Assembly: GCA_964509655.1 (NCBI GenBank)
Contig: CAZDYW010000001.1
Span: forward strand, 1-48,481
Direction of reading: 5' to 3'
Length of the DNA: 48,481 bases
Origin: an uncultured Anaerolineales bacterium
Lineage (GTDB): Bacteria > Chloroflexota > Anaerolineae > B4-G1
Position numbers and translations under genes: made by a program. Positions 13,289 to 32,784 of the stretch are shown here, piece after piece. Under the pieces are notes generated by a model. The model worked only from the letters and a program-made list of their open reading frames with translations, was not told the DNA's origin and did no database searches. Position 1 is the stretch's first letter. Every line of letters begins with the position of its first letter.

Positions 13289-13302
13289 ACACCGAGGTGA
13301 CT

Positions 13303-15759: not shown

Positions 15760-15821
15760 ATAATAAGTCGGTCACTTGCAGACCTGCAAACTTGCAGACT
15801 CAAAAAGAAGGAGAGCATACT

Positions 15822-17348: not shown

Positions 17349-17447
17349 AGAAACCAGGTTTTTATCACTAGAAACAAGTGAATTTCTTGCCTTTTGAGGT
17401 ATTCCGTGATGTCGGAAGCGCCTCCCTGAGCAAAAAACCTGGTTTCT
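17349..17447. repeat. Perfect 15-bp inverted repeat that brackets almost the whole nuoM-nuoN intercistronic region
   Basis: AGAAACCAGGTTTTT (17349..17363) and AAAAACCTGGTTTCT (17433..17447) are exact reverse complements, separated by 69 nt. The right arm ends 6 nt before the nuoN SD. Confidence 0.8.
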
Positions 17448-17465
17448 ACGTATAGGAGGACAACG

Positions 17466-18941
17466 TTGTTCGGAGAACCGATACTCACGTTAGGCCAGAC
17501 GCTATGGCTGCTCTCGCCGGAACTGGTGCTTCTCTTGACAGGTTTCCTCATTATGGGGCTGGATGCTATCCACCCGCAAAAAGAGGAAAAGCGCTGGGTG
17601 CCTTATGTTGCCTTGGGAGGGCTAGCCGTTGCCCTGATCGCATCTATCACCCTTTGGGGTTGTAACACCAGGGTGCTCTTCATGTTTTCCTGTGACCCTT
17701 TCTCGTTGGTCGTTAATATGGTGGCTATGTTGGCTGTGGGGCTTGTGATACTCTCATCCGATCCGTACATTCGAGTGCATAGTCGGTATCAGGGTGAGTT
17801 TTACGCTCTTCTGCTCTTCTCAGCTCTAGCCATCTGCCTCTTGGGTGGGGCGACTAACTTGATTATGGTCTTCTTGGCTTTTGATTTCCTGAGCATCACG
17901 TCATATATTCTCACCGGTTACTTGCGTGAGGATCAAAAGTCAACAGAGGCTGCGATCAAGTATTTTCTCTACGGCGCAGCTCTCTCCGCAATGATGCTTT
18001 ATGGAATGTCCTGGTTCTATGGGCTGACCGGCTCCACAGATCTGAACGGTATTGCAATGGTTCTCATGGAAGGGGAGCGTGTGCTGCGTCCAATCATCTT
18101 GCCAGCCTTGATCTTTATCGCCGCTGGCTTCGCCTTCAAAATCGCCGCTGTGCCATTTCACCAATGGGCTCCTGATGCTTATGAAGGTGCCCCGACTCCG
18201 GTAACGGCTTTTCTCTCTGTCGGGCCTAAGATCGGTGGCTTCGCCGTCATTCTACGGGTGCTTTTAACCGCCTTGCCTGGTGATCTGGTGAACCTGGCGA
18301 TGGATTGGCGGGCACTGCTGATGGCGGTCTCTATGCTCACGATGACGGTCGGCAACCTGGTAGCGCTTTGGCAGAAGAACATCAAGCGCCTGCTGGCTTA
18401 CTCCAGCATCGCCCAGGCCGGTTACATCCTTATCGGCGTGGTAGCAGCCTCTCCTCGGGGAGCGACAGCGGTTTTGCTCTACTTGGCGGCTTATGCGCTG
18501 ACCAACTTGGGCGCTTTCGCCGCTATCATCGCTTTCTCCAACCAGACCGGCTCCGATGCCATTGAGGACTACGCTGGGCTGAGCCAGCGAGCACCGGTGA
18601 TGGCCCTGGTGTTGATCATCTGCCTGCTCTCGTTAGGAGGCCTCCCACCGACGGCCGGCTTCGTCGGCAAGCTGTGGCTCTTCTCCGCGGCGATCGAGGA
18701 TGGGTTAATCTGGCTCGCTGTGGTCGGCGTGATCAACAACGTTATCTCTCTATCCTACTACTGGAAGGTCATCCGCGCGATGTACCTCACCCCTGCGCAG
18801 AACGGGGAACCGCTGTCTACCTCGCCCACAGTGACAGTAGCGCTGGGCGCGACGACGGTGGGCGTGCTTATCATTGGCGTCTTCCCAAGCCCGCTCCTGT
18901 CGCTTGTCCAGGCTGCTGCAGTGACCCTTTTCGGTGGGTGA
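17466..18941 (+). CDS. nuoN: NADH-quinone oxidoreductase subunit N
   Basis: 491 aa with a TTG start 6 nt after AGGAGG (17454..17459). NuoN/ND2 blocks are present (AAIKYFLYGA, FKIAAVPFHQWAPDAYEGAPTPVTAFL, LLAYSSIAQAGY). Confidence 0.9.
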   Translation: MFGEPILTLGQTLWLLSPELVLLLTGFLIMGLDAIHPQKEEKRWVPYVALGGLAVALIASITLWGCNTRVLFMFSCDPFSLVVNMVAMLAVGLVILSSDPYIRVHSRYQGEFYALLLFSALAICLLGGATNLIMVFLAFDFLSITSYILTGYLREDQKSTEAAIKYFLYGAALSAMMLYGMSWFYGLTGSTDLNGIAMVLMEGERVLRPIILPALIFIAAGFAFKIAAVPFHQWAPDAYEGAPTPVTAFLSVGPKIGGFAVILRVLLTALPGDLVNLAMDWRALLMAVSMLTMTVGNLVALWQKNIKRLLAYSSIAQAGYILIGVVAASPRGATAVLLYLAAYALTNLGAFAAIIAFSNQTGSDAIEDYAGLSQRAPVMALVLIICLLSLGGLPPTAGFVGKLWLFSAAIEDGLIWLAVVGVINNVISLSYYWKVIRAMYLTPAQNGEPLSTSPTVTVALGATTVGVLIIGVFPSPLLSLVQAAAVTLFGG

Positions 18942-19017: not shown

Positions 19018-19046
19018 TTGACAAATTAAGGGGCGCGTGCTAGAAT
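19018..19046 (+). promoter_or_regulatory. Promoter candidate for the moaD-like/aor operon
   Basis: TTGACA (19018..19023), a 17-nt spacer, then TAGAAT (19041..19046). The predicted leader to the ATG at 19164 is about 110 nt. Confidence 0.5.
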
Positions 19047-19163
19047 CTTCCGGTCGCGTCTTGATTATGGCGCGTCTGGGACGCGCTTGGCGAGAGGTTG
19101 TTGATTCCCAAGACTGGCGTCTCTGGACTGTGTAGTGAAGTGCGAATTGAAGTGGCGGACTTG

Positions 19164-19454
19164 ATGAGAATCTCTGTTCAGGTGCAGTTGTTTGGACTTC
19201 CCCGTCTGATAGCGGGGGAGAAACAGATAAAGCTAAGACTGGAGCAGGATGCTACCTTCCGAGATGTTGTGCGCGTGTTGGCCAGACTGTACCCGGACAT
19301 GATCGGGGACGTGATCCAAGCTGACGGCGAAACGCTACAGGCGCCCAATATCCTTAACCTTGACGGAAGGCGGATGATCCAAGCTCATCAGATGGATGAG
19401 GGTCTTAGTGCAGGTGACCGAATCATACTAATGTCTATGTCAGCAGGAGGCTGA
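19164..19454 (+). CDS. MoaD/ThiS-family ubiquitin-fold sulfur-carrier-like protein (96 aa) ending in Gly-Gly
   Basis: MRISVQVQLFGLPRLIAGEKQIKL...DRIILMSMSAGG-stop. The size, the beta-grasp-like pattern and the C-terminal GG are typical of MoaD/ThiS. Its stop lies directly before the AOR start. The track start (19098) is an upstream extension, so the start is uncertain. Confidence 0.78.
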   Translation: MRISVQVQLFGLPRLIAGEKQIKLRLEQDATFRDVVRVLARLYPDMIGDVIQADGETLQAPNILNLDGRRMIQAHQMDEGLSAGDRIILMSMSAGG

Positions 19455-19457
19455 TTG

Positions 19458-21347
19458 ATGCAAGGCTACAGTGGAAGAATTTTGCACATTGACTTGACTG
19501 ATCGCAAGACGTGGGTCGAGTCGAAACCGGAGGCGTGGTACAAGACCTATATCGGTGGCGTCTCGATGGCTACCCGACTTTGTTGGGAGAATATTGAACC
19601 GGGCTGTGACCCGCTATCACCGGACAATCCGATCTGCATTGCGAACGGGATCTTCGCGGGGACTCCCGTGCCAGTGGGGGGAAAATACGGTATGGCGTCC
19701 AAGTCGCCATTGACTGGCTTCATCGGCGATAGCCTATCGAGCAGCTGGTTCACAGTCGCGCTCAAACGGGCGCGATGGGACGGAATCGTCATTCACGGAG
19801 CAAGCGAGGACTGGGTCAGGGTCTTCATCGACGATGAAAAGATTGAATTTCGTGACGCTTCTCACCTGAGGGGCCTGACCACCACGGAGACCGAAGATAC
19901 AATTCGGGAAGCGTTCGGCGATGATCAGGTACGGTCAGCCGTTATCGGACCGGCCGGTGAGAACCTGTCACGCATTGCCAACGTGAGCAACGATGGTCGT
20001 AAGGCAGGTCGCACAGGCCACGGCGCGGTGTGGGGCTCGAAGAAGCTTAAGGCGCTTTCCGTGCGTGGCACCAACGGGGTGCAGGTGGCTGATCCTGAGA
20101 AGCTGCTTGAGCTTTCATACGATATTCTCCAAGCGGCGCAGGGGCCGCACACTCAGAAGTATCGAATCCTCGGCACCTCGTCGAACGTGCTGAACATGAA
20201 CGAGCTGGGACTGCTGCCAACTAGAAACTACCAGGAAGGCGTGTTTGAGGAAGCTGAACTGGTCAGTGGCGAGTACCTGCACGAACACTACAAAGCGAAG
20301 ACGATCGCCTGCGCTCAGTGCCCCATCGCCTGCGAGCAGGTCGGACGTCTGAAGGAAGGGCCGTACGCTCCTGCGATGGGACACATCGAGTACGAATCCC
20401 TCTTCGCTCTATCCTCGAACTGCGGCGTTAGCGATATGGAAGCCTCGATCAAGGCCATCGTAAACTGCAACGAGCTGGGTATGGATACCATGAGCACCGG
20501 CGTGACCATCAGCTGGGCGATGGAGTGTTACGAGCGGGGCATCTTCTCGGAGGAAGACTTTGCGGGCGAGCGGTACCCAGAGGGCTTCGAAGCGAACTTC
20601 GGCAATGGTATGGCGATGGTGAGATTGACCGAGATGATCGCTTACCGGGACGGCACCATGGGCAACCTGCTGGCCGAGGGGACGAAGCGCGCGAGCGCGA
20701 CCCTAGACGAGGAGCGGGGCACGGAAAGCTATAAGTGGGCGATGAACATCAAAGGTTTGGAGACCCCCGGCTACGACGCCCGATCGCTCAAGACGTTCTC
20801 TGTCGGGCTCGCGGTGGGAACGCGTGGCGGGTGTCACAACCGGTCGGCGGCGTATGATCCCGACATCAAGGGCCAAGTAGATCGGTTCAGCGTCGACGAG
20901 ACCCGAGGAGAGCTGGCAAAGAGCACGGAGGAATACGCAGCCGTGTATGATACGCTGCCCCTGTGTAAGTTCATTCGTCGCTGCTTCACCGGAAAAGCGG
21001 ATCGCGAGGGAGCCTGGCCAGCTATTGCCAATCTGATCAACGCCACGACGGGCTGGGACTTCGACTACGACGCCGTGGACTTGATTGGCGAGCGGGCCCA
21101 CACGATGAAGAAGGCCTTCAACATCCGCGAGGGCTGGACGAGAGAAGATGATCACCTACCGTATCGGTGGCAGCACGAGCCGATGACGAAGGGAGTCTCG
21201 GCCGGTCACGTGGTGACCGATGAGGAATTGGAGTACCTCAAGGATCTCTACTACGAGGCCAAGGGCTGGACTGAGGACGGTTTGATCCCAAAGGAGAGAT
21301 TAGAGGAATTGGGGATGGAAGACGTCGCAGAAGAGATTGGTGTATAG
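19458..21347 (+). CDS. aor: Aldehyde:ferredoxin oxidoreductase family (tungsto-/molybdopterin enzyme)
   Basis: 629 aa. It has an AOR N-terminal domain (GRILHIDLTDRK..., GGKYGMASKSPLTG), the [4Fe-4S] motif CAQCPIAC plus a distal Cys, and pterin-binding blocks (GLETPGYDARSLK, GGCHNRSAAYD). The ATG at 19458 is 7 nt after GGAGG. Confidence 0.93.
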   Translation: MQGYSGRILHIDLTDRKTWVESKPEAWYKTYIGGVSMATRLCWENIEPGCDPLSPDNPICIANGIFAGTPVPVGGKYGMASKSPLTGFIGDSLSSSWFTVALKRARWDGIVIHGASEDWVRVFIDDEKIEFRDASHLRGLTTTETEDTIREAFGDDQVRSAVIGPAGENLSRIANVSNDGRKAGRTGHGAVWGSKKLKALSVRGTNGVQVADPEKLLELSYDILQAAQGPHTQKYRILGTSSNVLNMNELGLLPTRNYQEGVFEEAELVSGEYLHEHYKAKTIACAQCPIACEQVGRLKEGPYAPAMGHIEYESLFALSSNCGVSDMEASIKAIVNCNELGMDTMSTGVTISWAMECYERGIFSEEDFAGERYPEGFEANFGNGMAMVRLTEMIAYRDGTMGNLLAEGTKRASATLDEERGTESYKWAMNIKGLETPGYDARSLKTFSVGLAVGTRGGCHNRSAAYDPDIKGQVDRFSVDETRGELAKSTEEYAAVYDTLPLCKFIRRCFTGKADREGAWPAIANLINATTGWDFDYDAVDLIGERAHTMKKAFNIREGWTREDDHLPYRWQHEPMTKGVSAGHVVTDEELEYLKDLYYEAKGWTEDGLIPKERLEELGMEDVAEEIGV

Positions 21348-21357
21348 GAGAAACGTA

Positions 21358-21852
21358 ATGGTTCTTCCTTCAACTTCGAAGCACGAGTATATAGCGTGTG
21401 ATGCCGAGAAGTGCGTCGGCTGTCAGATATGCGAGTACGTCTGCTCATACAACAAGACAGGCGAATTCAACACATTTCGCAGCCGGATCCGTACCGTGCG
21501 TGAGCACAAGATTCTAATGACGGCGGTGGCCTGCCGCACGTGCGAGGATGCGCCGTGCGTAATCGCTTGTCCCCGCGATGCTTTGACCCAGGATGCGGAT
21601 ACTGGCGTGATCCGCGTGGACACAGGACGTTGTGACGGGTGCGCGTGGTGTATCGAGGCCTGCGACTTCGGTGCTATCTCCATCAACCCCCGGACCAAGC
21701 TGGCCGAGATGTGTGACCTGTGTGAGGACGAGGAGGATGGCCCCCAGTGCGTCAAGTGGTGTCCGAAGGAGGCGCTCGAGGTCACGATCCCCGATCGGAG
21801 AGCTCAGCGGGCGCGGCGCAAGCGGGCGATCGAGGAAGTCCTCGGGCGGTGA
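21358..21852 (+). CDS. Four-cluster [4Fe-4S] ferredoxin-type electron-transfer subunit (DmsB/HybA/AorA-like)
   Basis: Four Cys groups are present: CVGCQICEYVC, CRTCEDAPCVIACP, CDGCAWCIEAC and CDLCEDEEDGPQCVKWCP. The ATG at 21358 follows AGGAG. The track start 21337 overlaps aor. Confidence 0.88.
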   Translation: MVLPSTSKHEYIACDAEKCVGCQICEYVCSYNKTGEFNTFRSRIRTVREHKILMTAVACRTCEDAPCVIACPRDALTQDADTGVIRVDTGRCDGCAWCIEACDFGAISINPRTKLAEMCDLCEDEEDGPQCVKWCPKEALEVTIPDRRAQRARRKRAIEEVLGR

Positions 21853-21966
21853 GGTCGCGGATGATATAGCCTATCGTCGGGCGCGGTTGTGTCACTGGGA
21901 GCGCGATTACGGGATGTTCCGGTGGCGCGTCCTCGCTTGACACTGTGAGTTCCGAGATGTAGAGAG

Positions 21967-21996
21967 CGGGTCTGAACGTCGACACCCTCAGACCCG
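21967..21996 (+). other. 9-bp stem-loop between the AOR-ferredoxin genes and hdrA (possible terminator, processing site or leader structure)
   Basis: CGGGTCTGA (21967..21975), a 12-nt loop, then TCAGACCCG (21988..21996). The following sequence is pyrimidine-rich (ttcctttatt) but is not a clean U-tract. Confidence 0.35.
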
Positions 21997-22022
21997 ATAC
22001 GTTCCTTTATTGGGAGGACAGT

Positions 22023-24536
22023 ATGGCAGGAGATAACGGAAACGAAGAAGTGCGCACGGGCGTGTACGTGTGTCACTGCGGTTCCAACATCGCCGGGGTT
22101 ATCGATCCCAAAGCCGTGGTCGAGTACGCAGCGACACTTCCCGGCGTGGTCCGGGCGGTTGAGACTCCTTACGCCTGTGCAGACAGCGGTCAGAGTGTCA
22201 TCAGAGAGGACATCGAGAAGTATGACCTGAACCGGGTCGTCGTGTCGGCATGCTCCGTGCGGATGCACGAGCCGACCTTCCGCTCGGTCGTCGCCGAGGC
22301 GGGGCTGAACCCGTTCTTGATGGAGATGGCCAACATCCGCGAGCAGTGCACGTGGGCCCATGGTCACGATGAGGAGGGGGCCCTGGAGAAGGCGAAGAGC
22401 CTGACGGCAGCGGCTGTGGCGAAGGCTCGATTTTTGACACCGTTGGACATGATCAAGGTGCCGGTCACCAAGCGGGCCATGGTCATCGGCGGTGGCGTGG
22501 CAGGCATCAGCGCGGCTCTGGATCTGGGTGATCAGGGCATCGAGACGATCTTGGTGGAAAAGGAGCCTACCATCGGAGGGGTGATGGCGCAGTTGAACAA
22601 GACCTTTCCCACGATGGACTGTAGCATATGAATACTCGCCCCCAAGATGGTTGACGCGTCGCGTCACCCGAAGGTAGATGTAAGAACGTTCACGGAAGTG
22701 GAGCGAGTCGAAGGATTCGTCGGCAATTTCAAGGTCCAGCTACGCGAGAAATCGCGGTACGTTTACGAAGATCGGTGCAACGGCTGCGGCGAATGCGCAG
22801 ACGTGTGTCCAATCGAGGTGCCCAACTACTTCGAGCTGAGCCTGGCCCCCCGCAGAGCAATCGACGTACCGATGAGCCAATCGGTGCCCCTGGTCTACAA
22901 CGTCGACATGGACGCCTGCATCGAATGCTACAAGTGCGTTGAGGCGTGCGGCGAACTGGACGCGATCCACTTCGGCATGGAGGATGATCTCGTCTGGGAG
23001 GACGTCGGTTCAATTGTCGTGGCCACGGGCTTCGACCACTTCGATCCCACGGCGATGTCGGAGTATGGCTACGGACGCTTCCCCAACGTGATCACGTCGA
23101 TCGAGATGGAACGGCTCAATAACTCTGCCGGCCCGACGGGCGGTGAGCTGATGCGGCCCAGCGATGGTGAGGTGCCGGAGCGCCTGGCCATCATCAACTG
23201 CGTAGGCTCGCGCGACAAACGGTTCAACCCGTCGTGCTCCAACTTTTGCTGCATGTACGCGATCAAGAACGCCGTTCTGCTCAAGCAGGCCTATCCTGAT
23301 ATGGACCTCAGCCTCTACTACATCGATATCCGGACGCCGTCCAAAGGATACGAGGAGTTCTACAACCGCGCGCGTGAGATGGGCATCCGTTTCATCCAGG
23401 GTCGCCCCGGACTGATCACCGAGGATCCCGATACCCGCAATCTGTTTGTCGAGTCGGAGGATAGAGACCTGGGCCAGGTCACCGAAAGCGAGTACGACAT
23501 GGTGATGCTGAACCAGGCTGCCGTGCCTCAGCCTGACGTCGACTCTATCAGCTCCGTGCTCAATATCACCCAGAGCCCCGGAGGGTGGTTCATGGAGTAT
23601 CACCCGAAGCTGCGGCCGCTCGACACGCCGACCGATGGCGTGTTCCTGGCCGGCGCGTGTCAGGGGCCGAAGGACATCCCGTCCAGCGTGTCGCAGGGAT
23701 CGGGTGCGGCTGCCCGAGCCGGACGAGTGGTCCACGCCGATGAGTGGGAGATTGAGCCCGTGATCGCCGCCGTGTGGGAGGATCGCTGCATCAGCGCACA
23801 GGGCAAGAAGTGCGGCCTCTGTGTGCGAGCGTGCCCGTACGGCGCGATTGAGTACGAAGAGGGAAAGGCGCCCAACATCATCACCGCCAAGTGTCACGGC
23901 TGCGGCGGGTGCGTGGCAGAGTGTCCCCATAACGCGATGACCCAGTTGCACTTCACGGATGCTCAGATTCTGGCGCAGATGCAGACCCTGCTGGCCGACA
24001 AGCCGGAGGAGAAGATCCTGGCCTTCCGCTGCCATTGGTGTTCCTATGGCGGCGCAGACCTGGCCGGAGTCAGCCACTTCGAATACTCGTCCAACGAGCG
24101 CGGCCTACGCGTCATGTGCTCCGCCCGCATGGACGCTGACTTCATCTATGAGGCGTTCCGCCTCGGGGCGGGCGCGGTTCTCTTCTCCGGCTGCCATCCG
24201 CAGGACTGTCACTACATCACCGGGCAGCGTGTTGGCGCGCGAAGAGCGGAGCGGCTGTTGAGGCGGTTTGAGAGGATGGGTATGACGCCTGGGCGCTTCC
24301 GCGTCGAGTGGATCAGTGCGGCCGAAGGTGACAAGTACGCACGGGTGATCAACGAGATGCAAGAGGTGCTGGATTCCGTGACCAGAGAGGAATTGCTGGA
24401 GGAGATCGAGGAATTGCGGCCGGATATGGCGAAGAGAGCTCGGCGTATGCGCCAGGTGCCGTTGGTCGAGGAGGCCTCGGACTTCGCAGAGGAGATCGCG
24501 GAGGCGCGCAGGGCGGGAGAGCCGGAAGCCGTGTAG
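22023..24536 (+). CDS. hdrA: Heterodisulfide reductase subunit A homologue with a C-terminal MvhD domain. It is a predicted selenoprotein with TGA at 22629..22631 read as Sec (837 residues).
   Basis: Two track ORFs (22023..22631 and 22647..24536) are in the same frame and separated only by TGA. The read-through product is colinear with HdrA. It has the N-terminal VCHCGSNIAG...ACS.RMHEP...REQCTWAH domain, the GGGVAGISAA FAD fold, FPTMDCSI-U-ILAPKM, an inserted ferredoxin (CNGCGECADVCP / CIECYKCVEAC), CSNFCC, GACQGPKDIP, a C-terminal 2x[4Fe-4S] domain (CGLCVRACP / CHGCGGCVAECP), and an MvhD/FlpD domain (LAFRCHWCSYGGAD...SGCHPQDCHY). Confidence 0.88.
22649..22668 (+). other. Candidate bacterial SECIS hairpin downstream of the hdrA UGA
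   Basis: GGU(U)GACGC - GUC - GCGUCACC forms 8 bp with one bulged U and has G and U in the apical loop. The hairpin starts 17 nt after the UGA, and the loop begins 26 nt after it. Confidence 0.5.
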
Positions 24537-24603
24537 GTTCACGGGGACTAGGACCACATGAGAGTCCCTTCTTTTGCAACAGAAGACGGTAGGAGAACGC
24601 CTA

Positions 24604-25563
24604 ATGGCAGATCAAAGGTCTCAAACTCAAACCTTCGCTGACCAGGTCCGTGCGATTCCCGGTGGAGAGCATCTGGAGATGTGTTACTCGTGCGGCACGT
24701 GTGTCAGCAAGTGTATGATTCAACAGAAGGTCGAGCCGGAGTACAACCCACGCCGCCTGCTGCGTATGGTGATCATGGACATGCAAGAGGAGGCATTCAA
24801 GAGCCCAACAACGTGGCTCTGCTCCGCTTGCGACCTATGCTATCCAGCTTGCCCGCAGGAAATTCACATATCGGGTGTCATCGGCGCGGTCAAACAGCTG
24901 GCCGTCGAGGCCGGCTATGAGTCGCCGCTGGAGACCGTCTCGGTGGACGAGTCGCTGTGCTCCGGCTGCGCCATCTGCGTGATGACATGTCCGTACGAAG
25001 CGCCCCACTTGGTGGAGAAGGAAGTCGATGGTGTGATGGACCGTCTCTCCGAGGTGGATGCGAACGCCTGCATGGGATGTGGCATCTGCGTCGCGGCATG
25101 CCCGATGGGTGCTATCTCGCGGCCCGGCGTAGCGAACGAGGAAATCCGGGCACAGCTCGACGTGCCCAGGCGAAACGGTGCGCCACGCATGGTGGCTTTC
25201 GTGTGTGACTGGTGCCTCCGAGCAGATGCAGACGTCACGCTTCTCGAGAGTTACCCTGAGAACGTGCAGGTAGTGCATATACCTTGTACTGGACGCATCG
25301 ATCCAGAGATGGCGCTTATGGCGCTGGGTTCAGACATCGACGGAGTGCTGGTCTGCGGCTGCGCGCCCGATGAGTGCCACTACCAGCGCGGCACGATGGT
25401 CAGCAGCTGCAAGATCGGGCTGTTGAATCGGGCGTTGGAGCAGATGAATATGGGCGACGGCCGGGTGCGCTTCGTACAGATCGGCACACAGGACCGTGGC
25501 CGCATCCGGAGCGAGATAGACCATATGATGGAGCACCTGGTGGCCTGGAAGGGGGCGGTGTAA
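24604..25563 (+). CDS. Three-module iron-sulfur protein: HdrC-like N-terminus, a 2x[4Fe-4S] ferredoxin, and a C-terminal MvhD/FlpD domain
   Basis: The modules are CYSCGTCVSKC...CSACDLCYPACP (HdrC-like), then CSGCAICVMTCP / CMGCGICVAACP, then VAFVCDWCLRADAD...IPCTGRIDPEM...VLVCGCAPDECHY (MvhD). The ATG at 24604 follows AGGAG. The track start (TTG 24574) is an extension. Confidence 0.85.
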   Translation: MADQRSQTQTFADQVRAIPGGEHLEMCYSCGTCVSKCMIQQKVEPEYNPRRLLRMVIMDMQEEAFKSPTTWLCSACDLCYPACPQEIHISGVIGAVKQLAVEAGYESPLETVSVDESLCSGCAICVMTCPYEAPHLVEKEVDGVMDRLSEVDANACMGCGICVAACPMGAISRPGVANEEIRAQLDVPRRNGAPRMVAFVCDWCLRADADVTLLESYPENVQVVHIPCTGRIDPEMALMALGSDIDGVLVCGCAPDECHYQRGTMVSSCKIGLLNRALEQMNMGDGRVRFVQIGTQDRGRIRSEIDHMMEHLVAWKGAV

Positions 25564-26573
25564 TGGCGAAAGCAAAGCCCAAACTCGCATTCTACTGGGC
25601 GGCCAGCTGCGGCGGGTGCGAGATCACGATCACCGAGTTGGGCATGCAGCTCATAGCAACGGGTGAGAAGGTCGACATCGTCTTCTGGCCCTGTTTGATG
25701 GACTTCAAGTACAGCGACGTCGAGGCGCTGGAGGACGGCGAGATCGACGTATGCTTCTTCAACGGGGCGATTCGTTCGAGCGAGAACGAGCACATCGCCC
25801 ACCTGCTCCGCCAGAAGTCGAAGGTCCTCGTGTCCTTCGGGTCATGCTCCCACACCGGAGGGATCCCGGGCCTGGCGAACTTCTACGATGCCGAGTCGAT
25901 CCTGGAGCGGGTCTACGGGTCGACACGCCCCAGTACCGCCTCGTCGCTGGACGACTCGCGTGGGACCCGCCCCACTCCGTCGGTGGAGATGCCAGAGGGC
26001 ACGATCGAGATTCCCACTTTCTACGACCAGGTCTTGACGCTGGATCAGACGGTGGAGGTGGACTACTTTATGCCTGGTTGTCCGCCGGTAGCCGACCAGG
26101 TGTGGAACGTCTTCCAGACGGTCTTGGATGGGGGGCTGCCGGAGCGGCGGGCCACTATCGGTGTCGATGCTAAGACGAACTGCGACGTCTGTCCTCGAGA
26201 GAAGGGAGAGGGCGGATTCCGCGTGAAGGAATGGAAGCGACCGCACGAGGTCGAGCTAGACCAAGAGGTCTGTTTCTTGGCGCAGGGTGTTATCTGCTGT
26301 GGACCGGTCACCCGAGCGGGGTGTGGACTGCCTTGTATCAGCGGCAACATGCCGTGCCGCGGCTGCTACGGTCCGCCGGAGGGGGTCGTCGATCAGGGGG
26401 CGAAGTTGTTCAGCGCGATCGGAGCGTTGATCGATACCGACGAACCAGAAGCCGTGCAGCAGATCATGGATACGGTTGTTGACCCGGCCGGGCTCAGCTA
26501 CCGGTTCGGGTTGGCAAACTCTCTCCTGAATGCGCTGAAGTACGGAAAGAATTCTGAAGAGGATGAAGTATGA
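25563..26573 (+). CDS. mvhG: [NiFe] hydrogenase small subunit, group 3 (MvhG-like)
   Basis: MAKAKPKLAFYWAASCGGCEI, GSCSHTGGIPG, PGCPP, and a C-terminal Cys-rich medial/distal cluster region (CDVCPREK, CCGPVTRAGCGLPCISGNMPCRGCYGP). The start overlaps the upstream stop (TAATG). The track ORF 25374.. is a 5' extension. Confidence 0.9.
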   Translation: MAKAKPKLAFYWAASCGGCEITITELGMQLIATGEKVDIVFWPCLMDFKYSDVEALEDGEIDVCFFNGAIRSSENEHIAHLLRQKSKVLVSFGSCSHTGGIPGLANFYDAESILERVYGSTRPSTASSLDDSRGTRPTPSVEMPEGTIEIPTFYDQVLTLDQTVEVDYFMPGCPPVADQVWNVFQTVLDGGLPERRATIGVDAKTNCDVCPREKGEGGFRVKEWKRPHEVELDQEVCFLAQGVICCGPVTRAGCGLPCISGNMPCRGCYGPPEGVVDQGAKLFSAIGALIDTDEPEAVQQIMDTVVDPAGLSYRFGLANSLLNALKYGKNSEEDEV

Positions 26574-28036
26574 GCCAAAAGATTAGTATAGACCCGATTA
26601 CGCGCCTGGAGGGCCACGGCCGGATCGATCTCTTCCTCAACGAGGATGGAGAGCTGGTCAACGCCTATCTGGTGGTCCCCGAGCTGCGCGGGTTCGAGAA
26701 GTTCTGCGAGGGCCGGCCGGTGGAGGAGATGCCGCGCATCACGCAGCGCATCTGCGGTGTGTGTCCAATCGCCCACCACGTCGCGGCCGCCAAGGCAGGC
26801 GACGCCGTGTACCACGTCGATCCACCGCCAGCGGCCAAGAAGCTGCGCGAGCTGCTGTACGCGTCTTTCTTCGTCGCCGATCACGCTACTCACTTCTACG
26901 CGCTGGCGGCACCCGATTTCGTCGTCGGTCCCGACGCACCGAAGGCCGAGCGCAACCTGCTGGGCGTGGTGCGGAAAGTGGGCCAGGATACGGGGGCACG
27001 TGTCGTTCAACTTCTGCAGGAGAATCACGAGATCGCGAGTATCGTGGCCGGCCGCTACATCCATTCCGCCAGCTGCATCCCGGGCGGGATGAGTAAGCCC
27101 ATCACTGAGGACGAGCGAAAGCGCATTGTTGAGATCGCCGAGCGCTCCATTGAAACGGCGCTGTTCTCCCTCCAGTTGTTCGACGAGGTGGTGTTACAGA
27201 ACCAGGCCTATGTCGACATGATCCTGAGCGATGCGCTTGCCCACGAGACCTACTACATGGGCCTGGTGGACGAGAACAACCAGGTCAACTTCTACGACGG
27301 TCAGGTGCGCGTGGTCGGTCCGGACGGCAAGGAACTCCTTAAGTACAGCGCGCACGAATACCTGGACGTGGTGGCGGAGCACGTCGAGCCGTGGACTTAC
27401 TTGAAGTTCCCATATCTGAAGCAGGTAGGGTGGAAGGGGTTCGTCGATGGCCCCGAGAGCGGCGTCTATCGGGCCTCGCCCTTGAGCCGGCTCAACACGG
27501 CCGACGGCATGGCGACGTCTAAGGCTCAGGCCGAATACGAGCGTTTCTACGACACGCTGGACGGCAAACCGGTACATGCGACGTTGGCTACCCACTGGGC
27601 AAGGCTGATTGAGCTGCTGTACGCCGCCGAGCGAACTCTGGAGCTAGCTGAAGACCCGGAGATCACCAGCGAGGAGATTCGGGCAATCCCGACTGAAACA
27701 CCGGACGAGGGTGTGGGCATCGTTGAAGCCCCGCGGGGCACGCTGACTCATCATTACGTCACCGACGAAAACGGGCTGCTTGAGCAGGTCAATCTGATCG
27801 TCGGCACGACCAACAACTATGCTGCCATCAGCATGTCGATCAAGAAGGCGGCTCAGGATCTGGTGCGCGCCGGACAGCTTGTCGACGACGGTCTACTGAA
27901 CAAGATTGAGATGGCGTTGCGAGCATACGATCCATGCTTTGGCTGTGCAACCCATGCTTTGCCGGGTCAGATGCCGATGATTGTGCGGCTCTACAACGAA
28001 GAGCGGGAATTGGTACAGGAGATCCGTCGGGACTAG
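26570..28036 (+). CDS. mvhA: [NiFe] hydrogenase large subunit, group 3 (MvhA-like)
   Basis: RLEGHGRIDL, the N-terminal Ni-binding motif RICGVCPIAHH, and the C-terminal motif DPCFGCATH followed by a 26-residue extension, which is the expected substrate of the maturation endopeptidase. There is an ATGA overlap with the small subunit gene. Confidence 0.95.
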   Translation: MSQKISIDPITRLEGHGRIDLFLNEDGELVNAYLVVPELRGFEKFCEGRPVEEMPRITQRICGVCPIAHHVAAAKAGDAVYHVDPPPAAKKLRELLYASFFVADHATHFYALAAPDFVVGPDAPKAERNLLGVVRKVGQDTGARVVQLLQENHEIASIVAGRYIHSASCIPGGMSKPITEDERKRIVEIAERSIETALFSLQLFDEVVLQNQAYVDMILSDALAHETYYMGLVDENNQVNFYDGQVRVVGPDGKELLKYSAHEYLDVVAEHVEPWTYLKFPYLKQVGWKGFVDGPESGVYRASPLSRLNTADGMATSKAQAEYERFYDTLDGKPVHATLATHWARLIELLYAAERTLELAEDPEITSEEIRAIPTETPDEGVGIVEAPRGTLTHHYVTDENGLLEQVNLIVGTTNNYAAISMSIKKAAQDLVRAGQLVDDGLLNKIEMALRAYDPCFGCATHALPGQMPMIVRLYNEERELVQEIRRD

Positions 28037-28044
28037 GAGAGGGT

Positions 28045-29019
28045 ATGGCTAGACGAGGAAGAACGAGGAAGCAGACCAGTGAGTGTGCGATCACGCTCAA
28101 ACGCGCCATGGTCACGCGCCAGTATAGGATGGAATGGGACCTGGAGCGGTGCGTGGGTTGTGAGCTGGGGCCTTTGGTCTGCCCCAAGGAAGCCGTCGAG
28201 CACGTGCCGGGGGAAATCGAGGATGGTCGGATGGCGAAGAAGCCGGCTGTGGACATCGACGCGGAGGCGTGTGTGTTCTGCGGCATGTGCGAGGTCATCT
28301 GCCCGAAGGATGCTATCACCCTGACCATCAACGGGGAGCGCGAGAATCCGGTGTTGGTGCACGAGGCGTTCCCGGAGTTGATCGAGTCGACCACTTTCCA
28401 CGAGGATAAGTTTGATTGGAGCAGGAAAGATCTCGTTATCGACAACTGCCCCACCGATGTGATCAGTTACGACGAAGAGGAAGAAACGCTGGTGGTCGAT
28501 GACGAGCACTGCATCCGCTGCCGTCAGTGCGAGGTCGCCAGCGATGGCGCCTTTGAGGTCACGCAGGCCTGGTCAGGCCAGGTAGAGCTGCATCGCGAAC
28601 GATGTGTGGAGGGATGCCTCGCCTGCGCCGACATCTGCCCGACGCGCGCGCTGTCCATCGACGAGGATAGCGGGGAACTGGTCCTAGCTGACTACTACTG
28701 CATCAAGTGCGGTGCTTGCGTACAGGTGTGCCCAATCAAGCCGTCGTATGAAGAGTACGACATAACGGTCGAGTCCCAGGGGGTGAGCAAGACGGTGACC
28801 CATCGGAAGATCACGAACCGCGACGAGCTGCCGATCTGGGTGGAACGGTGGCGCGTGCGGCATCATCCGGTCCAGAGTGGAACGTGGATCGAGGCGCTGA
28901 CCAAGTTGGCCGATGATAGGGCTGGTATGGTCGAGATTGACAGCAAGCGAGCGCTAAAGCGACGCGATCTGCTAAAGGTCCTTGCCGGAGCGAAAACGCT
29001 CTTGGGCCTCGAGGAGTGA
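28045..29019 (+). CDS. Polyferredoxin-like multi-[4Fe-4S] protein (MvhB-like)
   Basis: Multiple cluster motifs are present: CVGCELGPLVCP, CVFCGMCEVICP, CIRCRQCEV, CVEGCLACADICP and CIKCGACVQVCP. The ATG at 28045 is 9 nt after the large-subunit stop and is preceded by GGAGAGGG. The track ORF 27934.. is a 5' extension. Confidence 0.85.
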   Translation: MARRGRTRKQTSECAITLKRAMVTRQYRMEWDLERCVGCELGPLVCPKEAVEHVPGEIEDGRMAKKPAVDIDAEACVFCGMCEVICPKDAITLTINGERENPVLVHEAFPELIESTTFHEDKFDWSRKDLVIDNCPTDVISYDEEEETLVVDDEHCIRCRQCEVASDGAFEVTQAWSGQVELHRERCVEGCLACADICPTRALSIDEDSGELVLADYYCIKCGACVQVCPIKPSYEEYDITVESQGVSKTVTHRKITNRDELPIWVERWRVRHHPVQSGTWIEALTKLADDRAGMVEIDSKRALKRRDLLKVLAGAKTLLGLEE

Positions 29020-29502
29020 TTAGAGCGACGCGTCGTCTGTCCCCTTCTTCACCTCAGCGAGGACTGCGTCCACGGCACGAGGGACCGCCTTCTCAACCGC
29101 CGAAGTACATTCCTCGCCGAAGGTGAAGGGGTCCTCCACCTCGATGGCGATAATGACGAAATTCTCGTCGTCGGGTAGCGTCCATCCCATTGCCCGACCC
29201 AGCGCAAGCGCCCCGGGCAGGGATACGTCGTGCGATGATCCCGCGTGTAGGGAGAGCTTGAGGTCCTGCGGAGTTAAGCGGTAGATATCGCCGGGCTGAC
29301 CGCTACGCGTCTGGATCGCGTCTACCATAACGACTCGTTGGTAGCCCTCAATGACGTCGAGTATGCGGAGGCCCCCCACGCTTGCTTCGCTGAAGTCCAC
29401 ATTCTCTTCCTGGGGACGTTCGGCCGCCTCGCGAACGACGTAAATCCCGATGCCGTCGTCGCGCAGGATCGTGTTCCCCATTCCCAGTACCAACGTCTTC
29501 AA
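29020..29502 (-). CDS. Hydrogenase maturation endopeptidase (HyaD/HycI/FrhD family)
   Basis: MKTLVLGMGNTILRDDGIGIYV, then DAIQ and SSHD. These give the metal-ligand pattern D...D...H of this protease family. The gene is convergent, and its stop abuts the polyferredoxin stop with 0 bp between them. Confidence 0.9.
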   Translation of the reverse strand: MKTLVLGMGNTILRDDGIGIYVVREAAERPQEENVDFSEASVGGLRILDVIEGYQRVVMVDAIQTRSGQPGDIYRLTPQDLKLSLHAGSSHDVSLPGALALGRAMGWTLPDDENFVIIAIEVEDPFTFGEECTSAVEKAVPRAVDAVLAEVKKGTDDASL

Positions 29503-29773: not shown

Positions 29774-30271
29774 ATGAAACTTGGAGATCAGCAAGGGAAT
29801 GAACTTCAAATCGTCATCTTCCGCTCTCTAGGGCTAGGTATCCGCATCGCTGGTGTGGTGGTAGTGGCGGTGCTGGGTGGCCTGTTCCTGGGACTGTGGA
29901 TTGACCGTAAGCTGGGGATCAGCCCCTGGGCTACATTGCTCCTGTTGGGACTGGGTATGCTGGTGGCCATGATCGGCTGCTACCGTGCGATGGTTCCGGT
30001 GGTCGCAAACCTGGCAGCCGGTCAGGAGGTCGAGTGGGGAGAACCCCTGCGTTCCCTGGTCTTCGTCGCTCAGATGGGGCTGGTGGTCATCACCCCGCTG
30101 CTGGTCGGCCTCTTCCTGGGTCTGCGGATGGACAGCCGATTGGACACTCGTCCCTGGGTGACCTTGACTCTGACGCTGCTGGGAGCTGTGACGGGATTGG
30201 TGGGCGCATGGCGTCTGTCTTCTGCATTCCTGAAACGAACGACGAAGGGAGATCAAGAGGAGGATTTGTAA
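29774..30271 (+). CDS. atpZ: AtpZ/ATPase_gene1-like small membrane protein, internally duplicated
   Basis: It sits immediately upstream of atpB. There are two copies of the motif block, GLFLGLWIDRKLGISPWATLLLLGLGMLVAMIGCYR and GLFLGLRMDSRLDTRPWVTLTLTLLGAVTGLVGAWR. Confidence 0.72.
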   Translation: MKLGDQQGNELQIVIFRSLGLGIRIAGVVVVAVLGGLFLGLWIDRKLGISPWATLLLLGLGMLVAMIGCYRAMVPVVANLAAGQEVEWGEPLRSLVFVAQMGLVVITPLLVGLFLGLRMDSRLDTRPWVTLTLTLLGAVTGLVGAWRLSSAFLKRTTKGDQEEDL

Positions 30272-31080
30272 TGGAATTCGTGCGTGAGCTACCGCACATC
30301 TCGATGGCAGCTGAGACCCTGTTTCACATCGGGCCCTTGCCCGTCACCAACTCTCTTTTGACCACCTGGATCTGTATGGTGTTTATCATCTTGGTGGCGT
30401 GGCTTGCCACCAGGAGGATGAGCCTTGTGCCAACTGGCTTTCAGAACCTGGTCGAGACAGCCATTGAGATGTTCTATGACGGCGTAGCCCGAGTCAGGGC
30501 CCCCAATAGAGCGGAGCTTTTCCTTCCCCTTAGTGGTACCGTTTTTTTCTTCATCCTCCTCGCCAACTGGATGGGTTTGTTGCCGTTCTTCGGTTCCGTT
30601 GGTCTGCTGATGGAGCACCACGGTGAAAGGGAGTTTGTTCCTTTGTTGCGTCCAGCCAACACCGATCTGAACACAACTGTCGCCCTGGCGATTTTTTCGG
30701 TGGTCGCTACCCAGATCTACGGTGTCAAGGAACGCGGCTTCTTGCCCTACTTCAACCGATTCATCAGAGTGGGTGGAATTGTGGACGCGCTGAAGGGAAG
30801 GCGATCGCGTAACCCCCTCATGCTGATAATCGACCTATTCATCGGGTTCCTGGAGATACTTGATGAGTTGACCAAGCTGCTCTCCTTTTCCTTCCGTCTT
30901 TTCGGTAACATCTTTGCTGGTGAGGTGTTGCTGATTGTGATTTCTATGCTGCTTCCCTACTTCGCTCCTTTGCCGTTCTTGGCACTGGAGCTGTTTGTTG
31001 GTTACATTCAAGCTCTGATCTTTGCGACCTTGTCTCTAGTCTTCGTAAGGCATGCGTGCGCTCACGAGGACCACTGTTAG
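30271..31080 (+). CDS. atpB: F0F1 ATP synthase subunit a
   Basis: 269 aa with a start that overlaps the atpZ stop (TAATG) and is preceded by GAGGAGG. It has the conserved FRLFGNIFAGEVLL block with the essential Arg, and LELFVGYIQALIF. The track ORF 30034.. is a 5' extension. Confidence 0.93.
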   Translation: MEFVRELPHISMAAETLFHIGPLPVTNSLLTTWICMVFIILVAWLATRRMSLVPTGFQNLVETAIEMFYDGVARVRAPNRAELFLPLSGTVFFFILLANWMGLLPFFGSVGLLMEHHGEREFVPLLRPANTDLNTTVALAIFSVVATQIYGVKERGFLPYFNRFIRVGGIVDALKGRRSRNPLMLIIDLFIGFLEILDELTKLLSFSFRLFGNIFAGEVLLIVISMLLPYFAPLPFLALELFVGYIQALIFATLSLVFVRHACAHEDHC

Positions 31081-31107
31081 TATGATCGATCTCAGGGCAA
31101 AGTTGTG

Positions 31108-31207
31108 GATTCGACACCCATTGGACATCATATGAACAAGCAAGGAGGACAAGTATGGACTCGACACCCATTGTACATCACATGAACAAACAAGGAGGAC
31201 AAGTATG
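31108..31207 (+). repeat. Tandem 50-bp direct duplication that includes the atpE Shine-Dalgarno sequence and start codon
   Basis: Unit 1 is 31108..31157 and unit 2 is 31158..31207. They differ at 4 of 50 positions, and both end in caaggaggacaagtATG. Confidence 0.9.
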
Positions 31208-31423
31208 GACAAGAATCTGATAGCAGCGCTGACAATCGTGTTGGGGGCAATAACACCGGCTGCGATGATCGGTCGCTTCTCGACCGAGGCTATGCGATCG
31301 TTGGGGCGCAATCCGGAGGCCGGCGAACCGATCAGCGCCAACCTGATCCTCGCGTTGGCCCTGAGCGAGGCGATCGCTATCTATTCCTTAGTCGTCGCTC
31401 TGGCCATTAAGTTTGTGGAGTAA
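31205..31423 (+). CDS. atpE: F0F1 ATP synthase subunit c
   Basis: A 72-aa hairpin protein with the loop GRNPEAG and the ion-binding Glu in LALALSEAIAIYSLVVALAI. Confidence 0.9.
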   Translation: MDKNLIAALTIVLGAITPAAMIGRFSTEAMRSLGRNPEAGEPISANLILALALSEAIAIYSLVVALAIKFVE

Positions 31424-31455
31424 GAACAGCTAGGAATCAGAAAGGAGGCGATTTC

Positions 31456-31971
31456 TTGGAAGCCCTAGGAATCAACCTGTATGTTCTGATCGCCCAAGTC
31501 GTCAACGTCGTCATCCTGTTCTTTGTGCTCCGTTCCCTGCTCTTCGATCGTTTCCTGGAAATGATGGAGGATCGCAGGCAGAGAATCCAGGAGGGCCTGG
31601 AGGAAGCTGATCGCGCGCAAGAAAAGGCGTGGGAAGCGGAGAGGATCTACCAGGAGCGCATGGAGAAGATTGAGCGAGAGCGAGAAGCTATCATCAGCGA
31701 GGCAAAGGAAGAGGCCGAGCAGCTTCAAGCGGAGATGATAAGCCAGGCGCGTGAGGAGGCAGAGGAAGAGGCGCGCCGCATCGTGGCGGAAAGACAAGCA
31801 GCTTTCGAGGCCGAACGTCGGGAGATTATGGCCGATATGCAAAGCCAGGTCGCCAGCCTGGTGATGGCCGCCACTCGCAAGGTCGTCGACGAAGGGATAG
31901 ACGAGGAGGTGCAACACCGGCTGATTGATCGCTTCCTGAGCGAGACAGATGCGCTGGGTGGAATCCAATGA
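31456..31971 (+). CDS. atpF: F0F1 ATP synthase subunit b
   Basis: TTG start after AGGAGG. It has a single N-terminal TM helix (LIAQVVNVVILFFVLRSLLF) followed by a long charged coiled-coil rich in E/R/A/Q. Confidence 0.88.
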   Translation: MEALGINLYVLIAQVVNVVILFFVLRSLLFDRFLEMMEDRRQRIQEGLEEADRAQEKAWEAERIYQERMEKIEREREAIISEAKEEAEQLQAEMISQAREEAEEEARRIVAERQAAFEAERREIMADMQSQVASLVMAATRKVVDEGIDEEVQHRLIDRFLSETDALGGIQ

Positions 31972-32477: not shown

Positions 32478-32481
32478 TCGT

Positions 32482-32784
32482 ATGCCACAAATTCCTGAAT
32501 TGGCGAACGCCGTCCTCTTTTTCGCTCCCGGCCTTCTGCTCGTCCAGATGCTGTACCTTGAAGGGATTATTGGACGTGGACAGTCAGATTTTCGAAGAGC
32601 ATTCTGGGGTATCGTCGCCAGCGTCCCCATCCGTTGGGGGGCGCAGCTTGTTGATCTGTCCGACCTGGGAATCGAGTCAGGTTTGGAACTTGAGGTGTTT
32701 CTCTTGGGCCTGGCTCTCGTTGTAGGCGTGGTCGCCAGTCTGGCCAAACGTCTATTTGTCTTCGGGGAAGAGGAACAGGCATAG
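32482..32784 (+). CDS. Hypothetical small membrane protein (100 aa)
   Basis: The ATG is 7 nt after AAAAGGAG and 4 nt after the atpH stop. It has two or three hydrophobic segments. No family was recognised. Confidence 0.5.
   Translation: MPQIPELANAVLFFAPGLLLVQMLYLEGIIGRGQSDFRRAFWGIVASVPIRWGAQLVDLSDLGIESGLELEVFLLGLALVVGVVASLAKRLFVFGEEEQA

Follow-up and report, generated by a model that had tools for sequence, protein, structure and literature searches.

We analysed a 48,481-nt stretch of DNA (hereafter, the window) from an uncultured Anaerolineales bacterium (assembly GCA_964509655.1, contig CAZDYW010000001.1, forward strand), in which the genes of a tungsten-type aldehyde:ferredoxin oxidoreductase (AOR), an HdrA-type flavoprotein and an Mvh-type [NiFe] hydrogenase lie together on one strand. 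Genes were identified from a listing of open reading frames (ORFs) and their translations, Pfam and NCBIfam scans, and sequence matches to PDB entries; the Pfam scans covered the long non-nested ORFs, i.e., the plausible genes, of the window. All genes named by a first-pass annotation, which had been made from the sequence alone, were recovered in place. For comparison, one genome per GTDB species was scanned, yielding 149 encoding loci, 80 of which were retained; the related loci number 82 in total. The 80 retained loci all belong to Chloroflexota and are mostly labelled as Anaerolineae lineages (Anaerolineales, Anaerolineaceae, Pelolinea, Brevefilum, Thermoflexales). Gene order in the related loci was read by tblastn with the window proteins, and the flanking ORFs were clustered all against all.

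The series opens with a promoter-like site (TTGACA-17-TAGAAT with an extended -10 TG, 11/12 matches; 19018..19046, + strand). This is the sole strong promoter-like site on the + strand before position 29734, and the spacer between worS and hdrA contains none. Three + strand genes of a multisubunit AOR follow. The first (19164..19454) encodes WorX, a MoaD/SAMP-like protein of 96 amino acids (aa) that ends in ...AGG* and weakly matches the NCBIfam models SAMP1 and moaD_arch; its gene call was taken from the related locus L001, its role was assigned after PMC13328260, and it sits before the AOR gene in 41 loci. The second (19458..21347) encodes WorL, the W/Mo AOR itself (629 aa; Pfam AFOR_N, E 4e-69, and AFOR_C, 9e-118). 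Its best PDB match is the P. furiosus AOR (PfAOR, 1aor; 393 bits), compared with 316 bits for the AorB-type 8C0Z and 180 bits for BamB, and WorL keeps the PfAOR residues T243, E313, Y427 and H448 together with Cys288/291/295/494. By these marks, WorL is a canonical tungsten oxidoreductase of the aldehyde-oxidising clade. A BamB-like dearomatising reductase was ruled out, as WorL is far nearer to PfAOR, AorB and the WorL of 9mqx and retains the aldehyde-site residues. The third gene (21358..21852) encodes WorS (164 aa, Pfam Fer4_11), a predicted electron-transfer subunit with 16 Cys that are invariant in 41 orthologs and would therefore bind four [4Fe-4S] clusters. Its best PDB matches, 9mqx_E and AorA 8c0z_C (84 bits), are Fe-S small subunits of multisubunit bacterial AORs; similarly, 9mqx_D is among the best matches of WorL. 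Overall, the parts of a multisubunit tungsten oxidoreductase (WOR) or AOR are all present: a WorL with its domains, ligands and aldehyde-site residues, a four-cluster WorS, and WorX.

Between worS and hdrA, just 5' of the hdrA ribosome-binding site, a GC-rich hairpin followed by a U-rich tract is predicted to fold (21967..21996, + strand). Its position is kept in the close relatives L003-L012 and L062, but the stem sequences differ, and the spacer measures 170 nt in the window, compared with 23-70 nt in genera that have no hairpin. This element may act as an attenuator or affect processing or stability, and the ratio of AOR to Hdr-Mvh expression may be set by it.

The next gene (22023..24536, + strand) encodes an 837-aa HdrA-MvhD fusion selenoprotein, for which the NCBIfam HdrA2 model scores 1032 bits. 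Residues 8-659 align over the full length of M. wolfeii HdrA (5odc_A, 818 bits), and residues 662-796 match chains of MvhD (FlpD domain) with 107-112 bits. The protein keeps K409 (CCMYAxK), the N-terminal motif with its four Cys, both ferredoxin domains (the inserted one and the C-terminal one), and the CSNFCC cluster motif. The Fe-S Cys of its six [4Fe-4S] motifs are invariant in 58-60 orthologs, and the fused MvhD domain keeps all five of its Cys in 58/58. An in-frame TGA (22629-22631, in DCSI-U-ILAPK) is found in 71/71 HdrA orthologs recovered, at the CxxU position that is equivalent to Sec197 of M. maripaludis HdrA (PMC13580544, PMC13518236). These hallmarks, namely the full-length alignment, K409, the cluster Cys and the CxxU pair, bear out the earlier assignment of this protein as a bifurcating-type HdrA.

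Twenty nucleotides after the UGA, the transcript could form a hairpin resembling a selenocysteine insertion sequence (SECIS), GGUUGACGC-GUC-GCGUCACCC (22649..22669, + strand). Third codon positions are strongly constrained at this place, with an entropy of 0-0.4 bit at codons +7 to +11 versus ~1-1.9 bits in the flanks, and a paralogous group of HdrA proteins, found in the clusters described below, has a different stem, capped by a GGUC loop, at this position after the UGA. RNAalifold recovered no structure downstream of the UGA that was common to both HdrA groups, because their hairpins stand in different registers. The synonymous-site constraint and the hairpin of the paralogous group are together good evidence for a SECIS, and thus for the window HdrA being a bacterial selenoprotein. 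No sel genes lie within the 48-kb window, and Rfam gave no match in it, hence no annotated SECIS or riboswitch.

Downstream lies the gene of a three-module protein of 319 aa, here called CFD (24604..25563, + strand). It joins an HdrC N-domain with two [4Fe-4S] clusters (residues 9-110, resembling HdrC 17-115), a ferredoxin domain with two further [4Fe-4S] clusters like the C-terminal one of HdrA (residues 111-175, HdrA 576-636), and an MvhD domain with a [2Fe-2S] cluster (residues 195-310). The match to HdrC is confined to residues 17-115, and CFD has no counterpart of the C-terminal part of HdrC, which reportedly clasps HdrB in the published Mvh-Hdr structure. Twenty Cys are invariant in 79 CFD orthologs, 16 for [4Fe-4S] clusters and four in the MvhD domain. 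The second Cys of the CFD MvhD CxxC (residues 201-204, window 25204-25215) is Cys in 34/79 orthologs and Ser in 42/79. Two MvhD modules are thus present, as had been proposed, one fused to HdrA and one within CFD, and they are not equivalent, since this fifth Cys is variable in CFD and fixed in the HdrA fusion. Four strictly kept Cys are consistent with a plain relay role for the MvhD of CFD. Relatives of CFD in sequence databases exceed 1,100; the top 120 share at least 75% identity with it, and those with a named source are all annotated as Anaerolineae or Chloroflexi. A profile search of 1.84 billion representatives recovered the full three-module architecture in a handful of 50% clusters only, most matches being other ferredoxin+MvhD fusions. 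As a separate observation, locus L083 (1-4073), from a Desulfobacterales MAG (JAGMBW010000140.1; MAG, metagenome-assembled genome), encodes HdrA, then a CFD-like protein and a ferredoxin of 206 aa, and has no hydrogenase genes close by, so the HdrA+CFD pair is not restricted to Chloroflexota.

The hydrogenase is encoded by the next two genes. The small subunit is of the MvhG type (336 aa, Pfam Oxidored_q6; 25563..26573, + strand), with 12 invariant Cys and hence three clusters; its best NCBIfam model is VhuG (185 bits, vs 71 bits for the 3b type). The large subunit is of the MvhA type (488 aa; 26570..28036, + strand), with a C-terminal extension for proteolytic maturation and all four Ni-Fe ligand Cys (RICGVC, DPCFGC) invariant. 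VhuA is its best NCBIfam model (378 bits; next model 173), and in PDB it matches MvhA (5odc_F and 9sw2_F) with 385-386 bits, Acetomicrobium mobile HydL with 374 and HoxH (3d) with 332. A small subunit with three clusters speaks against the HoxY-type small subunit of group 3d. On these best matches and the cluster count, we accept the hydrogenase as group 3c-like by score, with A. mobile HydL scoring nearly as high as MvhA, and the Mvh-type assignment of the first-pass annotation stands. That annotation had also placed two overlaps, TAATG and ATGA, at the small/large pair; the ATGA overlap indeed joins these subunits, whereas TAATG joins the CFD gene to that of the small subunit. A survey of Chloroflexi hydrogenases has described a new clade of group 3c whose genes neighbour hdr genes.

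The last gene of the series (28045..29019, + strand) encodes an FmdF/FwdF-like polyferredoxin of 324 aa with a Cys-free C-terminal region of ~90 residues. Nineteen of its Cys are invariant, corresponding to about five clusters. FwdF is its best NCBIfam model (109 bits vs 51 for VhuB), and its PDB matches are 9sfi_T (97 bits), FmdF 7bkb_K (92), FwdF 5t5i_F (86) and MvhB (53). Convergent with the series, on the - strand, lies a [NiFe] maturation endopeptidase gene (29020..29502; 160 aa, Pfam HycI, TIGR00072), the position of which is not kept in the related loci.

Examining the related loci revealed that the AOR and Hdr/Mvh genes form one conserved block. The order (WorX)-AOR-WorS-HdrA-CFD-small-large-polyferredoxin, on a single strand, was found in nearly every locus that was long enough. 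AOR, WorS and HdrA occur together in 50 of the 57 loci with enough upstream DNA, mostly in Anaerolineae MAGs, and the two hydrogenase subunits and the polyferredoxin in 58 of the 70 with enough downstream DNA, while the identities of the block proteins across loci range from 60 to 95%. The order thus recurs in dozens of species-level genomes of Chloroflexota, beyond chance; complete genomes with the cluster include OY969431.1 and CAUVYA020000002.1. The median gaps between successive block genes are -8, 70, -5, 2, -4 and 12 nt, the 70 nt being the WorS-HdrA spacer, which in many genomes measures 23-30 nt. The clustering of flanking ORFs, in which adh, hdrB, etf, hyp and tup genes were considered, revealed no conserved neighbours beyond WorX-polyferredoxin. 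Since the order of the block is kept and its flanks are not, the block is maintained while its surroundings change. The first-pass annotation had viewed the AOR genes as an upstream operon and a natural ferredoxin-linked partner of the hydrogenase; their place in the block in 50/57 loci, the 70-nt median spacer and the sole promoter-like site at 19018 speak against a neighbouring operon joined through free ferredoxin. Positions 19018-29019 are best explained as one operon, which would encode a soluble complex of seven proteins.

The variants of the block show that its parts are exchanged as modules. In locus L079 (79-9562), the order is AOR-WorS-HdrA-CFD, then a 263-aa FeS protein with a selenocysteine-containing (Sec) FdhA, then the polyferredoxin, so that a formate dehydrogenase (FDH) exactly replaces the hydrogenase. 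In L024, CFD is followed directly by the polyferredoxin, and L081 has HdrA-CFD-small-large-polyferredoxin and no AOR. A paralogous cluster, found in L043, L044, L047, L048, L050 and L051, has FDH genes instead of AOR, with neither AOR nor polyferredoxin. For example, the cluster of L048 (785-13422) comprises a NuoG-like Sec-FdhA, a 238-aa protein, an unfused Sec-HdrA, MvhD, a 271-aa FeS protein, a second Sec-FdhA, CFD and the small and large subunits, and contains three in-frame TGA codons. Twice, both cluster types occur within one MAG (L007 with L050, and L024 with L044). Where HdrA is of the fused type, the polyferredoxin is found too, and the FDH-type clusters lack it; it thus accompanies this HdrA, and the third module is usually the AOR pair. 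In this modular arrangement, an MvhD-bearing gene precedes an H2- or formate-converting unit, which is presumably docked by the MvhD domain.

Sequence identities within the MAG that holds L007 and L050 add a further observation. The small and large subunits of the window are nearer to those of the FDH-type L050 (91 and 94%) than to those of the AOR-type L007 (82 and 89%). CFD has the opposite pattern, with 77% identity to L050 and 86% to L007. These opposite patterns suggest recombination between the paralogous clusters near the junction of CFD and the small subunit.

The first-pass annotation had also stated that no CCG-domain subunit is encoded nearby, and our searches agree. The Pfam scans of the plausible genes of the window found no CCG domain, and the regular expression C-X31-39-CC-X35-36-C-X2-C, which was run without a positive control, had no match in the window or in the 82 loci. 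By these searches, the window does not encode an HdrB with two CCG domains on a full-length HdrC.

We compared the window system with six known systems, beginning with the MvhADG-HdrABC complex of methanogens (5ODC). The two share group 3c-type subunits, an MvhD adaptor, and an HdrA with FAD, six [4Fe-4S] motifs, K409 and CxxC/U; as in mvhDGAB, a polyferredoxin gene follows that of the large subunit. In contrast to that complex, the window has no HdrB/CCG subunit, its HdrC is an N-domain fused to a ferredoxin domain and a second MvhD, its HdrA is also fused to an MvhD, its operon includes a tungsten AOR with an Fe-S subunit, and its host is a bacterium. The HdrA2B2C2 system of Methanosarcina acetivorans shares the HdrA-MvhD fusion, and HdrA2 is the best NCBIfam model of the window HdrA; however, the score of 1032 bits is below the family cut-off of 1100, HdrB2C2 are missing, Sec stands for Cys, and the gene context is another one.

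In methanogens, HdrA is also part of Hdr-Fmd supercomplexes, namely (Mvh-Hdr)2-Fmd4 of M. marburgensis, Fdh-Hdr-Fmd of M. hungatei (7BKB) and Hdr-Vhu-Fwd of M. maripaludis (PMC13580544, PMC13518236). There, MvhB or FmdF connects HdrA directly, on its low-potential arm, to Fmd, a W/Mo-pterin enzyme that carries out a reduction at very low potential, and hydrogenase and FDH are exchangeable on MvhD (PMC13580544, PMC13518236). The window system resembles these in its polyferredoxin, which is nearest to FmdF/FwdF chains, in the Sec of HdrA that corresponds to Sec197, and in its exchangeable hydrogenase and FDH modules; the replacement of small/large by FeS-FdhA in L079, and the presence of both MvhD-FeS-FdhA and CFD-small-large beside an HdrA in clusters of the L048 type, mirror the Mvh/Fdh exchange on MvhD. 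It differs in that its tungsten enzyme is of the AOR family, its polyferredoxin has only about five clusters, HdrBC are absent, and its complex is a proposed one.

Three further systems have a tungsten enzyme of the AOR family. In the class II benzoyl-CoA reductase BamBCDEFGHI of Geobacter metallireducens, an HdrA-like subunit passes low-potential electrons through BamC to the tungsten enzyme BamB, and high-potential electrons leave through the CCG protein BamD to the electron-transferring flavoprotein (ETF) (bioRxiv 10.64898/2026.04.10.717634). The likeness lies in the pairing of an AOR-family tungsten enzyme and its Fe-S subunit with an HdrA-type flavoprotein, in the MvhD-like adaptor and Sec, and in the modular electron input. 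However, the WorL of the window is nearer to PfAOR than to BamB, its WorS has four clusters rather than the three of Bam, its input is a [NiFe] hydrogenase and not BamGHI, BamD is absent, and its HdrA is a single unit and not a fused dimer. Thus, the window enzyme falls outside the BamB clade and comes without a CCG motif or NuoEFG-like genes. Class IV WORs, such as WOR1 of Acetomicrobium mobile (AmWOR1), combine WorLS with WorABC, a bifurcating plug of the Bfu type (PMC12318220, PMC13328260), and WorS is reported to act as an Fe-S nanowire in AmWOR1 (PMC13328260). The window likewise has WorX-WorL-WorS in one operon with a bifurcating module; this module is of the HdrA type and not of the Bfu/NuoEF type, and its couple is H+/H2 or formate and not NAD+. 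Neither the operon nor the window encodes a NuoE/F/G-like WorABC with an NAD(P)-binding flavoprotein. Finally, AorABC of Aromatoleum aromaticum (8C0Z) has an AorB/AorA pair like that of the window (316 and 84 bits) and a MoaD-like accessory gene, whereas the window has no FAD/NAD-binding AorC, and Hdr/hydrogenase genes stand in its place. By gene content, the window system is therefore not a member of MvhADG-HdrABC, the class IV WORs or the class II benzoyl-CoA reductases, with each of which it shares parts. A working principle common to all three is probable.

Targeted full-text searches of the literature found no description of an AOR-HdrA-Mvh cluster. A classification of June 2026, which divides over 4,000 tungsten oxidoreductases among five classes, has Hdr-like subunits only for benzoyl-CoA reductase and no hydrogenase-linked class, and the survey of Chloroflexi hydrogenases mentions no AOR next to group 3c hydrogenases. 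No characterised system with this architecture appeared in the literature searched, this classification included.

What might such a set of proteins do? We tentatively favour, with a confidence somewhat short of an even chance, a hard-wired bifurcating complex of tungsten AOR, HdrA and hydrogenase that is closed with ferredoxin. In its favour stand the conserved block with its one promoter-like site, the swapping of modules, the kept hallmarks of HdrA and aldehyde-site residues of the AOR, the likeness of the polyferredoxin to FmdF/FwdF wires and of WorS to small subunits of multisubunit AORs, and the precedent of AmWOR1, in which an AOR-type enzyme is coupled to a bifurcating module. The HdrA-MvhD flavoprotein would be the hub of flavin-based electron bifurcation or confurcation. 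WorL with WorS and the polyferredoxin would be wired to the low-potential (ferredoxin-domain) arm of HdrA, in a position like that of formylmethanofuran dehydrogenase in Hdr-Fmd and of BamBC in class II benzoyl-CoA reductase; the AOR/WorS pair and the FmdF-like polyferredoxin are most likely hard-wired to HdrA. The [NiFe] hydrogenase, the place of which FDH takes in some relatives, would be attached through CFD, with the MvhD domain docking the small subunit and the HdrC-like domain docking HdrA. Two features point to the HdrC-site arm for the hydrogenase: the HdrC-like domain sits on the same chain as the MvhD of the hydrogenase side, and the fused MvhD, which alone keeps the fifth Cys, already occupies the canonical MvhD site.

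The standard potentials of the acid/aldehyde and H+/H2 couples are -580 mV and -414 mV, respectively. The proposed complex would couple these two pairs with ferredoxin, at ~-500 mV, and would use no CCG/thiol site. The third partner may be ferredoxin, because the mean of the two couples, (-580 + -414)/2 = -497 mV, is close to the ferredoxin potential and because no CCG protein or adaptor is conserved with the block. The net reaction would be carboxylic acid + 2 Fd(red, 2 e-) + protons <-> aldehyde + H2 + 2 Fd(ox) + H2O, reversible and with its direction set by the levels of H2 and aldehyde. The stronger version, a self-contained HdrA bifurcase with H+/H2 or CO2/formate as the higher-potential couple at the HdrC site, the AOR at the low end and ferredoxin in the middle, and with no thiol or CCG site, is possible but doubtful. 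The high-potential acceptor had been called unknown from the sequence; the set of acid/aldehyde, H+/H2 and ferredoxin is thermodynamically closed and could do without one, while an unknown acceptor is still a serious rival.

Several observations weigh against the ferredoxin-closed complex. The loci L081, without AOR, and L024, without hydrogenase, show that the set is not always complete, and the positionally conserved hairpin and U-tract between worS and hdrA may partly uncouple expression in this sub-clade. The HdrA is so similar to that of methanogens that its flavin may suit an H2 or formate donor with an acceptor of much higher potential, and hdrB-like genes, which exist in some Anaerolineae, could act in trans. 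The gene order, with MvhD preceding its partner, is equally compatible with CFD as an extension cord of the input path, and the AlphaFold2 model of CFD is too poor for assigning arms (mean pLDDT 55.6; 14 sequences, at least 74% identity). Lastly, the FDH-type cluster, with formate, H2 and ferredoxin, is thermodynamically awkward under the same scheme.

The canonical polarity of HdrA, with a partner missing from the cluster, is in our view a credible though rather unlikely alternative. Electrons from H2 or formate would then enter through CFD and the fused MvhD to the flavin; the low-potential electron would pass through the polyferredoxin and WorS to the AOR, which would reduce acids to aldehydes, and the high-potential electron would leave from the HdrC site for an acceptor whose gene lies elsewhere. 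This acceptor could be an HdrB/HdrD-like CCG protein in trans, ETF, or a thiol/disulfide at the CxxU pair. An HdrA architecture nearly identical to that of methanogens fits this scheme, as does the swapping of hydrogenase and FDH at the MvhD adaptor, which is how donors behave in methanogens. Acid reduction at -580 mV needs reducing power of the bifurcation level, as with Fmd and BamB; ETF, the acceptor of class II benzoyl-CoA reductase, is likewise encoded elsewhere; and the Chloroflexi survey reports hdrABC and ETF genes next to group 3c hydrogenases in some Chloroflexi. Nevertheless, across ~80 genomes no gene for an acceptor or a CCG/BamD-like adaptor is conserved within the block or beside it, the C-terminal part of HdrC has no counterpart in CFD, and an HdrC-like domain on the chain of the input MvhD risks a short circuit if its five clusters form one wire.

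Aldehyde-driven bifurcation in the manner of WOR1 appears improbable. Here, aldehyde would donate electrons to FAD by way of WorL, WorS and the fused MvhD. At the flavin they would be split: one branch would lead via CFD and the hydrogenase to H+ (or via FDH to CO2), the other via the ferredoxin domain of HdrA and the polyferredoxin to ferredoxin. This would permit a fermenter to remove aldehyde at very low aldehyde levels. AmWOR1, composed of WorLS and WorABC, indeed reduces NAD+ and ferredoxin together from aldehydes, with the same low-aldehyde rationale (PMC12318220, PMC13328260), and Anaerolineae ferment with production of H2, the presumed role of their AORs being the oxidation of aldehydes derived from amino acids (PMC5481317). 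The HdrC-like fusion would also put the hydrogenase on the higher-potential arm. However, aldehyde lies below both acceptors at standard potentials, making the coupling unnecessary, and the polyferredoxin resembles wires to W/Mo enzymes and not ferredoxin-docking modules. More improbable still is that nothing bifurcates, with HdrA a mere relay in an aldehyde:H+ oxidoreductase (cf. formate hydrogenlyase) or with separate, co-regulated parts sharing free ferredoxin: the conversion of aldehyde to H2 is exergonic without coupling, the hairpin and U-tract part worS from hdrA in this sub-clade, and L081 and L024 show that parts can occur separately, but a relay would make the strictly kept hallmarks of HdrA (K409, the Sec of CxxU in 71/71, six clusters) costly, gene order is kept while flanks vary, and in many genomes the spacer measures 23-30 nt, which implies that the genes are co-translated as one unit.

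Bacterial HdrA/Mvh clusters that lack HdrBC have been noted in genomes for years, with no function given. In the window, a putative HdrA partner, the tungsten AOR, is written into the operon itself and conserved across dozens of Anaerolineae. Anaerolineae are among the most abundant fermenters of anaerobic digesters and sediments, and the cluster suggests that hydrogen, aldehyde/acid and ferredoxin chemistry are directly coupled in them; the question of what HdrA bifurcates to where a heterodisulfide is lacking can now be tested directly with three defined substrates, H2, aldehyde/acid and ferredoxin. The genome paper on Brevefilum annotated AORs and reported 'no definitive hydrogenase' (PMC5481317); Brevefilum MAGs carry the cluster, which explains the reported missing hydrogenase. 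If the self-contained, ferredoxin-closed bifurcase exists, H2 evolution would drive the reduction of carboxylates to aldehydes, or aldehyde and H2 would together make reduced ferredoxin, in Anaerolineae fermenters. The complex would then represent an unrecognised polarity of HdrA and an unrecognised class of tungsten oxidoreductase, to be added to the existing scheme. The principle of a low-potential arm wired by polyferredoxin would reach aldehyde/acid chemistry, beyond methanogens and benzoyl-CoA reductase, and the complex would be a candidate catalyst for H2-driven reduction of carboxylic acids.

The window is Chloroflexota-like DNA, with a GC content of 48-62% in 2-kb steps, and proteins identical to its own are found on an NCBI MAG contig (GCA_054920275.1) and in a Logan assembly. 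Outside the block, it carries housekeeping genes: ppdK, dnaG, rpoD, nuoA/H/J/K/L/M/N, atpI/B/E/F/H and mazF, as well as murE, rho, fbp, cdsA, uppS, frr, pyrH, tsf and rpsB. The nuo operon (10845-18941), which ends just upstream of the promoter-like site at 19018, consists of the membrane-arm genes nuoA, H, J, K, L, M and N only, with no nuoB, C, D or I between or beside them. A link of the block to these genes, with quinone as acceptor through a membrane arm without Q-module, was considered and rejected, as the adjacency occurs only in L001, L006 and L014 and not in other close relatives. The ATP synthase operon on the other side (29774-33691; atpI-like, atpB, atpE, atpF and atpH, with no atpA/G/D/C after them) was rejected as a general partner on the same grounds, its adjacency being likewise confined to these three loci. 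A MazF/PemK-type toxin gene (33344-33691) precedes murE. ORFs of 116-294 aa that have no Pfam match lie at 9800-10684 (-), 10118-10510 (+), 10338-10814 (+), 1714-2064 (+) and 2095-2478 (-). The GC content falls to 0.49 in the stretch from 2001 to 4000.

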